This document shows positions 10,660 to 58,677 of a stretch of DNA of 64,000 nucleotides, in pieces. Made by a program: the position numbers and the translations under genes. The stretch is from assembly GCA_023229725.1 (NCBI GenBank), contig JALNYR010000001.1:9292-73291 (forward strand). Direction: 5' to 3'. The notes beneath the pieces are model-generated. The model made no database searches. It had not been told where the DNA came from and was given only the letters and a program-made list of their open reading frames with translations. The stretch comes from Dehalococcoidia bacterium (GTDB lineage Bacteria; Chloroflexota; Dehalococcoidia; GIF9; AB-539-J10). Position 1 is the first letter of the stretch. Each line of letters starts with the position of its first letter.

Positions 10660-10859
10660 AGCGGTTTAGCTGTCGAGAGTGCCGCTTCTCATCACAGCAA
10701 GTCATCGTGAAAGAGCCGTTTGAGCGTGATGGAATGATGCAGAATGCGCAAACACCGAGAGATGTCATCGTATGTCGGCGGATGCCGTTTTCTTTGTTGA
10801 AGCTCGCGAGCGAGTGGTGCGGTGAGTTCAAAGAGAAAGATCCAGAGCCCAAGCCGTGA
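10656..10859 (+). CDS. Cys-rich small protein with WCGEF motif
   Basis: 67 aa. CREC ... VCRR ... EWCGEFKEK. Confidence 0.55.
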   Translation: MKRFSCRECRFSSQQVIVKEPFERDGMMQNAQTPRDVIVCRRMPFSLLKLASEWCGEFKEKDPEPKP

Positions 10860-56182: not shown

Positions 56183-56370
56183 CAGCGACCTCGCCTGCCG
56201 CCGACCTTGCGGCTGTAGACCTCGCAGCAGCGCCCCCGCAGCGAGGCGGCCGAGCAGAAGCCGATGGCTTCGTCGTTCGTCTTGAAGCATCGGTCCTTCG
56301 CCCAGGACGACTTCGTCACGGGGCCCTTGCCGCGGAGGTGCGTGCAGTAGCGGTTGCGCTTCGTACCCAT
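56182..56370 (-). CDS. tiny basic protein, C-x6-A-x3-C-x6-G-x2-C-x-V family
   Basis: 62 aa. Core RCFKTNDEAIGFCSAASLRGRCCEV. Confidence 0.6.
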   Translation of the reverse strand: MGTKRNRYCTHLRGKGPVTKSSWAKDRCFKTNDEAIGFCSAASLRGRCCEVYSRKVGGRRGR

Positions 56371-56376
56371 GGACCG

Positions 56377-56382
56377 AGTCTA
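56377..56382 (-). promoter_or_regulatory. -10-like TAGACT, 6 nt before ATG 56370 (leaderless geometry)
   Basis: Minus strand reads ctgTAGACTcggtccATG. No convincing -35. Confidence 0.3.
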
Positions 56383-56419
56383 CAGGGGCTCGCGTGCGGG
56401 GGCGAAGTAGAGGTTGGCT

Positions 56420-56504
56420 TGGTTGCGGGGGGAGGACTTGAACCTCCGAAGGCTTTCACCAGCAGCCTTACGAGCTGCTCCCTTTGTCTCTTGGATACCC
56501 CGCA
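56420..56504 (-). tRNA. tRNA-Tyr(GUA)-like, type II (long variable arm), CCA encoded
   Basis: 85 nt: TGCGGGG-TA-TCCAAGAGACAAAGGGA-GCAGC-TCGTAAG-GCTGC-TGGTGAAAGCCTTC-GGAGG-TTCAAGT-CCTCC-CCCCGCA-A-CCA. Closely parallels E. coli tRNA-Tyr from memory, but the anticodon loop has C at position 33. Confidence 0.75.
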
Positions 56505-56567
56505 AGCTGCCTCGCAGTGCCAGATGCGGGCAACGGCTACCGTTTCCTCTCGGAAACGCCTGGCGCC

Positions 56568-56642
56568 GGTAGCGCGGGACGGGATCGAACCGTCGGCCTC
56601 CGGGTTATGGGCCCGGCGAGCTACCTACTGCTCCACCGCGCT
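56568..56642 (-). tRNA. tRNA-Met(CAU), initiator-like
   Basis: AGCGCGG-TG-GAGC-AGTAGGTA-GCTC-G-CCGGG-CCCATAA-CCCGG-AGGCC-GACGG-TTCGATC-CCGTC-CCGCGCT-A-CC. Three G:C pairs closing the anticodon stem and A11:U24, as in bacterial initiators, but A1:U72 is paired and position 33 is C. The 3' CCA is not fully encoded (CCg). Confidence 0.75.
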
Positions 56643-56782
56643 GTGACTGTTGGCGCGGACCGTGCGCCTGCGCCATCGTCCTCGATGCTACGAGTTGTCG
56701 CGGGCTCGGAAGCCTGTGCTCGCGCACCTCATCGAAATCTCCGCACCTCGGGTTCTCAGAGGCGAACGTCTTAGCAGGTCTG

Positions 56783-56812
56783 AGCGTACCGCGACGGGGC
56801 GGCGGCCGTCAA
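56783..56812 (-). promoter_or_regulatory. sigma70-like promoter upstream of the tRNA pair (-35 TTGACG, 18 nt, -10 TACGCT)
   Basis: Minus strand has TTGACG (56812-56807) and TACGCT (56788-56783). The -35 overlaps the stop of 56809..57399. Confidence 0.35.
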
Positions 56813-57399
56813 GGGCAGACGCCAGCGGCGAGAAGGGCGGCACGGTCGGCTTCGAGGAGGTCACCCAGTGGATCGTTCGGGCTCGCCATCGTTGAGCGAA
56901 GGTCGACGGTCATGGGCGGGCCCGGATCGTCCGCGAGCGCCAGCGGAACGTGGCCGATGGCGTGCCGCAGCGCGAGCCGTGCCGTCGACTCGTTGTACGC
57001 GATGTCCGAAGAGATCGTGATCGTGCCGCTCACGACGAAGCCGTCGACGTCGAACTCGACGTGAGCTCGCTCGGCCGTCTCACCGTCGTCGGCGAGGTCG
57101 AGGAGGTCGCCGTCAGCGTAGGGAGACACGTAGCCGACGTCGACCAGGACCTCGCCGTACTCGTCGATGCAGAGCGCCTCGCAGCCGAGGCGATCGTTCC
57201 ACCACGCGACCTCGCCCTCGAGCCAGCCCGCGGGCACCGTCTCGTCGGCCCAGAGCGCCGGCGGCGGCACCTGCGGCTGCGCGTCCTGACCGGTCGGCGT
57301 GATGAGCCAGAACTCGTTCAGCTCCTCGGTCGTCGGGCAGTCGGCGCCGAGCGTGAAAAGCACGAACGAGGTGAATAAGGCTATTCGTGTGAACGTCAT
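56809..57399 (-). CDS. exported protein with degenerate metzincin-like motif (HAIGH instead of HEIGH)
   Basis: 196 aa. Signal-like MTFTRIALFTSFVLFTLGADC. ALRHAIGHVPLALADD resembles HExxHxxGxxH with Glu replaced by Ala. Confidence 0.4.
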   Translation of the reverse strand: MTFTRIALFTSFVLFTLGADCPTTEELNEFWLITPTGQDAQPQVPPPALWADETVPAGWLEGEVAWWNDRLGCEALCIDEYGEVLVDVGYVSPYADGDLLDLADDGETAERAHVEFDVDGFVVSGTITISSDIAYNESTARLALRHAIGHVPLALADDPGPPMTVDLRSTMASPNDPLGDLLEADRAALLAAGVCP

Positions 57400-57738: not shown

Positions 57739-58677
57739 TCAGGCTCGCGTCGCCCCCCAGGTCTTCTTGAGCCACGCGAGCACGCGCCGCTGCGTGGGCG
57801 TGTCGCTCCTGATGCCGAAGAGCCACTTCGAGGACCACATGCGAATGGCCATGACGCGGACGCCCGCGTCATTCAGCGGGCTGCAGAGCGGCGCGACCGC
57901 CAGTTCGAGCGCCTCTTCGACTTCGTGGCCCGGCCACTTCTGGTCGTAGCCGGCGAGGCCCGCGCCGAGCTGGACGATGCCCTTTGCGAGCTCGGGGATG
58001 TCCTCGAGCACGTCCTCAAGGAACTCCTCCTGCAGCCGACCGGGGCCCCGCGGCCCGGAGAAGGCCACCTTCTTCCCCTCCCAGTCGCTCTCGGTCGAGT
58101 AGAGCTGGTAGTACATGCGGTCGAGGAGCCGGGCGAGGAAGGCGTGCTTGCTCGCCTCCTTGTGGCCCGTGTGCGTCGTCCCCTGGAGCGCGATGTCGTG
58201 CTTCGCGGCCAGCTCTCGCCGCCGGCCCACGAGGTAGGCCGCGGCGCCGTCGAGCGAGGCGAAGCCGCGGCAGTGCTGCTCCTTCCACATCCCCTCGGCG
58301 TCGCCCTCGAGCGCCGTGAAGCCGAAGGGCAGGATCTCGTGGTCGAGGATCTCGCAAGCCCGGTCGATCTTGTCCATGTCGGGCTCGGGCCAGTCGGTCG
58401 CGACGAGGCTGATGTCCGCGTCCAAGGCGAGCGGCAGGATGATGGCGAGGTCCCGCGGCTTGTAGACCGAGTCGAGACCTGGCTTCGTCGTGTCGACCAT
58501 GAGCGCGGCGGTCATGACGCCGTGCTCACGCATGAGAGCCCAGTAGGCCGGGTCCTTCACGACCGACGGGGGATCGTCGATCCAGACCTCGAGGCACGGC
58601 AGCTTCGATGCCGCCGCTGCGGCGCGCGGGATAGGAGTTTCGGGCGAGGTGGGCACGCGAGAGATTTCGTCTGGCAT
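57739..58677 (-). CDS. hypothetical protein, possibly a TIM-barrel glycoside-hydrolase-like enzyme
   Basis: 312 aa. Alternating beta/alpha-looking segments and its location among cell-wall hydrolases. No catalytic motif recognised, so function is a guess. Confidence 0.3.
   Translation of the reverse strand: MPDEISRVPTSPETPIPRAAAAASKLPCLEVWIDDPPSVVKDPAYWALMREHGVMTAALMVDTTKPGLDSVYKPRDLAIILPLALDADISLVATDWPEPDMDKIDRACEILDHEILPFGFTALEGDAEGMWKEQHCRGFASLDGAAAYLVGRRRELAAKHDIALQGTTHTGHKEASKHAFLARLLDRMYYQLYSTESDWEGKKVAFSGPRGPGRLQEEFLEDVLEDIPELAKGIVQLGAGLAGYDQKWPGHEVEEALELAVAPLCSPLNDAGVRVMAIRMWSSKWLFGIRSDTPTQRRVLAWLKKTWGATRA

Follow-up and report, generated by a model that had tools for sequence, protein, structure and literature searches.

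A variable tRNA cassette in a virus-like element, with C33 in an initiator-type tRNA-Met and a type II tRNA-Tyr

The DNA analyzed here (the window, 64 kb) comprises bases 9292-73291 of a 79,034-bp contig, C95, that was binned with a Dehalococcoidia genome (bin G000; 262 contigs, 2.69 Mb, 8% estimated contamination). The minus strand of the window carries two transfer RNA (tRNA) genes, an initiator-type tRNA-Met(CAU) and a type II tRNA-Tyr(GUA), and both have C rather than U at position 33 of the anticodon loop. The two genes form a cassette set between two conserved protein genes, the tRNA cargo of this cassette varies among related elements, and C33 recurs in tRNAs encoded by viruses. The interpretation we favor, tentatively and short of even confidence, is that these are two working tRNA genes in an accessory cassette of a virus-like, probably circular element of ~78.9 kb, and that they give the element a private back-up supply of tRNA.

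ARAGORN calls exactly two tRNA genes in the 64-kb window, Tyr and Met, both on the minus strand, and the Rfam tRNA covariance model (RF00005, gathering score 29) accepts both, at 40.4 bits and 64.3 bits, respectively. An earlier note on this DNA, made from the letters alone, had described two minus-strand tRNA genes with C33, and these programs together with our reading of the sequence bear it out. The two genes are as follows.

56570..56642, minus strand: initiator-type tRNA-Met(CAU), positions 1-73 (ARAGORN, Rfam RF00005, minimum-free-energy (MFE) fold, orthologues)
56420..56504, minus strand: type II tRNA-Tyr(GUA) with CCA encoded (ARAGORN, Rfam RF00005, fold, alignment with bacterial tRNA-Tyr)

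The ARAGORN span of the tRNA-Met gene is 56568-56642 on the minus strand and the Rfam match covers 56570-56642. From the sequence and the covariance-model alignment, it reads AGCGCGG UG GAGC AGUAGGUA GCUC G CCGGG CCCAUAA CCCGG AGGCC GACGG UUCGAUC CCGUC CCGCGCU A. All of its stems are perfectly paired, and its MFE fold, obtained by thermodynamic folding, is a cloverleaf. The D loop is AGUAGGUA, and the D stem GAGC/GCUC gives the pair A11:U24, where elongators have a pyrimidine at 11 and a purine at 24. The anticodon stem CCGGG/CCCGG contains three consecutive G:C pairs (G29:C41, G30:C40, and G31:C39), and this 5-bp stem carries the 7-nt loop CCCAUAA, in which CAU is flanked by C32 and C33 on one side and A37 and A38 on the other. 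A11:U24, the three anticodon-stem G:C pairs, and the CAU anticodon identify a bacterial initiator, and the window gene has all of them. At 1:72, where bacterial initiators have no pair, it has a Watson-Crick A1:U72. The T loop UUCGAUC has U54 and lacks the eukaryotic A54/A60, and the discriminator A73 is followed by CCG, so the 3′ CCA is only partly encoded. The earlier note had named both the initiator marks and the paired A1:U72, and the sequence and the model alignment agree on each.

The A1:U72 pair has a published counterpart. In E. coli, an overexpressed initiator carrying A1-U72 sustains growth with no other initiator present (Monestier et al. 2017, PMC5393177), and the formylase tolerates a weak 1:72 pair (PMC5393177). 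The E. coli variant has the same pair on a bacterial initiator body, but it is engineered and has U33; the window gene occurs naturally, on an element, and with C33. Because the weak pair is tolerated and A1-U72 works in that system, we infer that the window tRNA-Met can still act as a bacterial initiator. EF-Tu may bind it, and peptidyl-tRNA hydrolase may attack it more readily than an initiator with a mismatch.

The tRNA-Tyr gene, read in the same way, is UGCGGGG UA UCC AAGAGACAAA GGG A GCAGC UCGUAAG GCUGC U-GGU-GAAA-GCC-UUC GGAGG UUCAAGU CCUCC CCCCGCA A CCA. It starts with U1:A72, its long variable arm is a 3-bp stem with a GAAA loop (type II), and it ends with A73 and an encoded CCA. Every stem is perfectly paired, and the thermodynamic fold is a cloverleaf. 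The GUA anticodon, A73, and the long variable arm are those of a bacterial type II tRNA-Tyr, and the identity marks for tyrosyl-tRNA synthetase (TyrRS) are kept (A73, G34, U35, and the long variable arm). The anticodon loop UCGUAAG consists of U32, C33, G34, U35, A36, A37, and G38, and the gene lacks the canonical loop and elbow marks U33, A38, and G18G19. Its Rfam match lies at 56423-56504 and is detected only under more permissive filters. The minimal requirement of the E. coli tRNA-guanine transglycosylase (TGT) is UGU (Nakanishi 1994, as cited in PMC1635277), and therefore C33-G34-U35 should leave the window tRNA-Tyr without queuosine; the bin encodes a TGT.

To place the cassette among related elements, we used contigs found through homologues of a conserved 312-aa neighbor protein, and the metagenome scan employed an alignment of the 11 closest of 19 homologues. 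The relatives share a gene order that runs from SLT through the 312-aa gene, a small gene, and an ~195-aa gene to a slot, which is followed by small basic proteins, a GDSL lipase, and M23 peptidases. In this family, the slot extends from the stop codon of the ~195-aa gene to a conserved GTAGACT-N6-ATG start. The identity of each 312-aa protein to that of the window and the content of each slot are as follows.

Window: 312-aa protein used as query; Met (A1:U72, C33) and Tyr(GUA)
L350: 88% identity; Met (C1xA72, C33, U29:A41) and Lys(CUU)
L346: 72% identity; Met (C1xU72, A33) and Lys(CUU)
L341: 56% identity; Met (C1xU72, U33, loop CUCAUGC) alone
L340, L342, and L345: 77%, 64%, and 84% identity; no tRNA in the slot

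The cassette is thus present in four of the seven family elements that cover the slot, with Met plus Tyr, Met plus Lys(CUU) twice, or Met alone as cargo, and L350, an independent metagenome contig, has an orthologous tRNA-Met that likewise carries C33. The single relative of the 312-aa protein in viral contigs, L120, has no tRNA.

The four Met genes of the family have a common acceptor stem, GCGCGG, and are orthologous. Across them, position 33 is C, C, A, and U, and three of the four retain C32, CAU, A37, and A38; position 33 is therefore the variable site in a loop that is otherwise conserved. An alignment of these four genes and two reference initiators has pairing in 96% of its cells, and both sides have changed in seven pairs, a level reached by 0/500 shuffles. 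From these compensatory changes, we conclude that the genes are under selection for tRNA structure. Position 1:72 is unpaired in five of the six aligned initiators, and the window gene alone is paired there. Since the three orthologues keep the bacterial 1x72 mismatch, A1:U72 is a one-step derivative of a bacterial C1xU72 initiator, through a single change of C1 to A. The L341 orthologue shows additional drift in the loop and in the stems.

The remaining parts of the cassette and its flanks in the window are listed here.

56783..56812, minus strand: promoter-like element of the tRNA cassette, TTGACG (56812-56807), 18-nt spacer, TACGCT (56788-56783), read from the sequence
56643..56782, minus strand: leader of ~135 nt from the promoter-like element to tRNA-Met (alignment, folding, Rfam)
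56505..56567, minus strand: 63-nt spacer between tRNA-Met and tRNA-Tyr, with a 7-bp hairpin CGUUUCC GAGA GGAAACG (z-score -2.35)
56368..56383, minus strand: GTAGACT-N6-ATG, a -10-like hexamer six bases ahead of the next gene's start (leaderless-type start)
56809..57399, minus strand: 196-aa gene that adjoins the cassette on its upstream side and forms the left border of the slot, conserved in relatives (synteny)
57739..58677, minus strand: 312-aa conserved neighbor gene, the marker for finding related elements (homologue searches)

In each slot that holds tRNAs, TTGAC(G/C)-N17/18-TAnnnT lies ahead of them and overlaps the stop codon of the upstream gene; in the window the -35 hexamer TTGACG overlaps the TGA stop of the 196-aa gene, whose product has no Pfam match. 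In the alignment, this element is kept in L350, L346, and L341, and the leader downstream of it is not. The window leader shows no significant structure (z-score -0.19), has no Rfam match, and is unconserved in the relatives. A consensus promoter scan did not flag the cassette site because its -10 hexamer is weak (3/6 matches to TATAAT). On the other side, GTAGACT-N6-ATG is kept in all relatives and marks the downstream edge of the slot. In L346, a T-arm-like remnant (GCGGG UUCAACU CCCGC) lies in the leader upstream of tRNA-Met (2360-2400) and suggests the former presence of another tRNA in that cassette, since decayed.

The element itself is defined by its ends. Bases 1-126 of C95 recur at 78900-79025 (window coordinates ~-9290 and 69609), with nine unmatched bases after the second copy, and this repeat is consistent with a circular or terminally redundant genome of ~78.9 kb. 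That the tRNAs belong to the element, as the earlier note had proposed, is supported by their position on a 79-kb contig with repeated ends. Pfam matches on element proteins include an integrase, a replication-type ATPase (AAA_25), a DEDDh exonuclease, a helicase, and glycosyl- and methyltransferases, and those of lytic or other type are two M23 peptidases, the SLT transglycosylase, and the GDSL lipase. Searches of the neighboring and large element proteins with PHROGs and Pfam detected no tailed-phage or virion hallmark gene and no tRNA-related enzyme (ligase, formylase, deformylase, peptidyl-tRNA hydrolase, or aminoacyl-tRNA synthetase). A capsid-like 309-aa element protein has no relatives in viral contigs.

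We also asked how position 33 behaves in the bin and its relatives, since C33 would be unremarkable if the host lineage commonly carried it. U33 is found in 44/45 other tRNA calls of the bin, and the bin's own initiator (on C228) has the C1xU72 mismatch and U33. The U33 initiator arm GGGCUCAUAACCC is present in 39/61 related genomes, and besides the element only two of the 61, G021 and G027, have the C33 arm. The G021 case (L358:7864-7938) is a second initiator-type tRNA-Met with C1xC72 in a genome that also has a U33 copy, and the G027 arm falls in no tRNA called by ARAGORN. A lineage in which C33 is common is thereby ruled out. The G021 gene, from a genome of the bin's family, lies on a 331-kb chromosomal contig in a stretch of low G+C. 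The sole exception to U33 in the bin is an irregular 87-nt tRNA (C253:5489-5575) with an Rfam score of 55.7 bits, to which ARAGORN assigns Thr(UGU) and the loop ACUGUAG; its anticodon placement is doubtful, and it may contain an insertion or an intron.

The 15-mer CGGGCCCATAACCCG, which represents an initiator-type arm with C33, matches at least 119 viral contigs, and at least 102 of the listed matches lie in tRNA-Met genes, with at least 79 distinct sequences. Among the 79 distinct C33 viral tRNA-Met listed, 56 have a mismatch at 1:72 and 23 have a weak pair (11 A:U, 9 U:A, and 3 of the G-U type); none has G:C. When viral contigs were scanned with either C or U allowed at position 33, 116 loci were found, of which 100 were new and all U33, and the 16 with C33 (~14%) were already in the first set. 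A weak 1:72 pair occurs in 22/74 of the U33 set, the same share as in the C33 set, or in 29% of viral initiator-type tRNAs. For tRNAs other than Met, C33 is found in 33/489 distinct viral sequences and in 1/166 cellular ones, an odds ratio of ~12 on data that are not independent. In this sample, C33 thus occurs in about 1 in 7 viral initiator-type arms, ~7% of other viral tRNAs, and <1% of cellular ones. Our literature search aimed at viral C33 enrichment found no description of the pattern. Among the sampled viral tRNA-Tyr, C33 is seen in 0/18, and C33 therefore seems rarer in tRNA-Tyr than in initiators.

Two cultured tailed phages provide close counterparts of the window tRNA-Met. Pseudomonas phage D3 (AF165214.2 53398-53473) and Janthinobacterium phage vB_JliS-Donnerlittchen (ON529854.1 42480-42556) both have, like the window gene, CAU on a bacterial initiator body with C33 and no strong 1:72 pair, and both have the arm CGGGC-CCAUAA-CCCG. 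Over 74 nt, the Donnerlittchen and window genes share 84% identity. The three differ at 1:72, which is C1xU72 in D3, U1:A72 in Donnerlittchen (our own parsing), and A1:U72 in the window, and the two phages are tailed, unlike the window element, with its lack of a tailed-phage hallmark gene. In cellular genomes, among the matches listed, the C33 arm occurs in Planctomycetota, DPANN and other archaea, Leuconostocaceae, and Patescibacteria. An identical C1xU72/C33 initiator is found in metagenome-assembled genomes of Phycisphaerales, Sedimentisphaerales, and Pirellulales (L223, L233, L242, L258, and L293), and C33 appears to be the native initiator state in Planctomycetota. These initiators share the bacterial arm with C33 but differ from the window gene in being chromosomal and C1xU72. 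By this comparison, C33 and A1:U72 appear unexceptional for a virus-encoded initiator-type tRNA. We regard the window pair as a further case of virus-borne tRNAs with anticodon-loop variants, including an initiator-type tRNA-Met, in which the C33 of tRNA-Tyr and the position-33 series within the family are the only mildly unusual points.

The earlier note had associated C33 and A1:U72 with initiators of the eukaryotic or archaeal type, and such a reading is not supported. C33 is native in animal and plant cytoplasmic initiators (PMC8887486), A1:U72 is found in archaeal and eukaryotic initiators (PMC5393177), and these share the three anticodon-stem G:C pairs with the window gene. However, the window gene has a bacterial body (A11:U24, with U54 and no A54/A60), its orthologues keep a C1xA72 or C1xU72 mismatch, its cassette has promoter-like hexamers of the bacterial type, its linked partner is a type II tRNA-Tyr, and C33 and weak 1:72 pairs are common in viral initiator-type tRNAs. 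To our knowledge, type II tRNA-Tyr occurs only in bacteria. The likeness to archaeal and eukaryotic initiators is convergent, and A1:U72 is no import from either group.

If the cassette is a private supply, we would picture it as follows. With its own promoter-like element and its place between two conserved protein genes, it would supply an initiator and a tyrosine tRNA during infection, as insurance against the loss or cleavage of host copies. The weak A1:U72 pair could be opened by the formylase, and the tRNA-Met should then remain open to formylation and able to initiate translation; a formyltransferase C-terminal domain is encoded in the bin. With loops that lack U33, the element's tRNAs would be poorly handled by host enzymes that recognize the anticodon loop: TGT needs U33-G34-U35, so the tRNA-Tyr would stay free of queuosine, bacterial enzymes for N6-threonylcarbamoyladenosine (t6A) would reject a U33C initiator, and loop-specific nucleases might be affected as well. 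For t6A, U33C on the E. coli initiator abolishes its formation by EcTsaBCDE in vitro (PMC8887486). That the element's tRNAs would be expressed, charged, and, for the initiator, formylated is inferred, and so is any role in counter-defense.

Phage tRNAs with such roles are known. With the help of their own tRNA-Tyr and tRNA-Lys, phages can overcome retron-Eco7 and PrrC (PMC11555353), phage tRNA-Lys counters PrrC or PARIS (PMC11555353, PMC11464382), and changes in the anticodon loops of phage tRNAs have been proposed as a means of nuclease escape (PMC10264068). The tRNA-Tyr of phages T5 and SP15, which act against PtuAB of retron-Eco7, resembles the window case in being a virus-encoded tRNA-Tyr (Lys in the relatives) with an altered loop and its own promoter-like element. 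The T5 tRNA-Tyr rescue is credited mainly to a strong promoter (PMC11555353, PMC11464382), and the relatives of the window element carry Lys(CUU), whereas PrrC and PARIS target Lys(UUU).

Several results weigh against a working private supply. The cassette is dispensable, because three relatives have no tRNA at the slot. The bin contains three different EF-Tu genes (C49, C72, and C6; 82%, 72%, and 67% identity to E. coli EF-Tu), and therefore it is a mixture and assignment of the element's host by binning is unsafe. Since the element is linked to the bin by binning alone, the "host" tRNAs used as a reference are simply those of the bin. A search of 201 further genomes from the bin's order for homologues of the 312-aa marker protein found none, and no PIN/VapC domain gene was found in the bin. 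Within the same viral contigs, C33 of the initiator and C33 of other tRNAs do not co-occur (7.8% versus 6.2%, p = 0.57), and therefore the paired C33s of the window Met and Tyr may be a coincidence. We know of no nuclease that depends on U33. Colicin E5 still cleaves a C33 substrate (PMC1635277), and C33 is therefore no general shield. Finally, the tRNA-Tyr, at 40.4 bits, is the weakest of the bin's 47 Rfam tRNA matches, its D loop AAGAGACAAA is without one G of G18G19, and its fold also closes U32-G38, so that a 5-nt anticodon loop is possible. One of the EF-Tu contigs, C49, has the proteobacterial gene order Thr-Tyr-Gly-Thr-tufB.

The weaknesses of the tRNA-Tyr lead to the possibility that one or both genes, Tyr above all, are decaying relics or tRNA-like regulatory RNAs, which the earlier note had offered as its alternative. 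The low score, the incomplete G18G19, C33 with G38, and the possible 5-nt loop would all fit decay, as would the three relatives without a cassette, and no similar tRNA-Tyr was found elsewhere: viral contigs gave zero exact matches to its anticodon arm and a phage collection gave zero blastn matches to the gene. The T-arm-like remnant in the L346 leader indicates that tRNA decay does happen in the slot. However, all stems of the two genes pair perfectly, compensatory changes are seen across the Met family, the TyrRS identity elements and the encoded CCA of the tRNA-Tyr are intact, and the promoter-like element ahead of the cassette is conserved. We therefore consider this explanation unlikely overall; decay is unlikely for Met, and for Tyr it is possible but not favored.

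A serious rival to adaptive escape is neutral drift, a possibility that we rank close behind a private supply without adopting it. Here the genes are functional spare tRNAs, C33, A33, and A1:U72 are tolerated changes, and position 33 has no adaptive meaning; weaker purifying selection on virus-borne tRNA copies is part of the proposal. The U-turn matters less to an initiator, which goes straight to the P site. The differences at position 33 among the orthologues (C, C, A, and U) follow no other pattern, the L341 orthologue has drifted further in loop and stem, and in viral contigs the C33 of initiators is unassociated with that of other tRNAs. The same states are tolerated elsewhere, with C33 native in Planctomycetota and in animal and plant initiators (PMC8887486) and occurring in DPANN archaea and Patescibacteria, and an A1-U72 initiator works in E. 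coli (PMC5393177). On the other hand, the ~12 times higher frequency of C33 in the viral than in the cellular non-Met tRNAs of our sample suggests a cause specific to viruses, the compensatory stem changes indicate that selection on the genes is not weak overall, and the tRNA-Tyr is an elongator that enters the A site, where U33 matters more.

The opposite view, that position 33 is a deliberate stealth switch that leaves the tRNAs usable by the ribosome but hidden from host enzymes that read the loop, seems doubtful to us. On this view, a C33 tRNA-Tyr would be queuosine-free and escape a nuclease that depends on queuosine or U33, a nuclease specific for initiators would miss one with C33 or A33, A1:U72 would let one tRNA serve in both initiation and elongation, and the C, C, A, U series would reflect an arms race instead of drift. 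Whichever holds, the family offers a natural series in which orthologous initiators vary in the base at position 33 (C, C, A, and U) and in the state of 1:72 (A:U, CxA, and CxU) with the remainder held constant. If position 33 is an escape site from loop-reading host enzymes, such a series would be ready-made test material, and if it is not, the series would illustrate how little an initiator needs U33.

The earlier note had raised another role, that of a specialized initiator possibly linked to the element's leaderless-type genes; that it favors translation of leaderless mRNAs we judge improbable. About 10/91 predicted genes have TAnnnT-N5-7-ATG starts in which ATG is used, including both genes that flank the cassette. 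An extra initiator tRNA favors 70S initiation on leaderless mRNAs. However, no feature of the tRNA is specific to leaderless starts, L340, L342, and L345 share the leaderless promoters yet have no tRNA, and a tRNA of this kind is also carried by phages such as Pseudomonas phage D3, whose hosts rarely have leaderless mRNAs.

The alternation of the second tRNA between Tyr and Lys among the relatives, together with a tyrosine integrase encoded a few kb from the slot in the element and its relatives, would fit tRNA-dependent lysogeny, which is documented in actinobacteriophages (PMC10865867). In that mechanism, integration leaves a host tRNA gene unrebuilt and the element carries a replacement of the same isotype, here Tyr and in the relatives Lys. 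We judge this quite improbable. Outside its own tRNA genes, the element shares at most 13 nt with any bin tRNA gene, which is at chance level, although this is a weak test given that the mechanism's cores are ~10 bp; the search for an attP-like tRNA fragment in the element yielded only 12- and 13-mers, at chance level, and this candidate was rejected. No integrated copy was found in the 201 related genomes, the initiator gene is left unexplained, and L340 has the integrase but no tRNA.

Codon or amino-acid supply is the classical explanation of phage tRNAs, and a GUA anticodon reads both Tyr codons. It would require the element to use Tyr and Met more than its host, and a comparison of Tyr codon usage had been suggested in the earlier note. 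In fact, Tyr makes up 2.22% of element residues versus 2.64% in the bin, and Met 2.03% versus 2.38%, values that come from crude gene calls and a mixed bin, and both TAC and TAT are lower in the element. Codon compensation is rejected on this amino-acid usage, and we regard supply of this kind as very improbable.

Two further tRNA calls were seen in the course of this work. On contig C87 of the same bin (10769-10853, minus strand), an 85-nt tRNA of type II combines a CAU anticodon with a body like that of tRNA-Tyr, including A73 and the long variable arm. Its score with the Rfam tRNA model is 41.8 bits, and its D arm resembles that of the window tRNA-Tyr. In the relative L342 (53-133, minus strand), ARAGORN alone calls a tRNA-Leu(AAG) inside a called protein gene.

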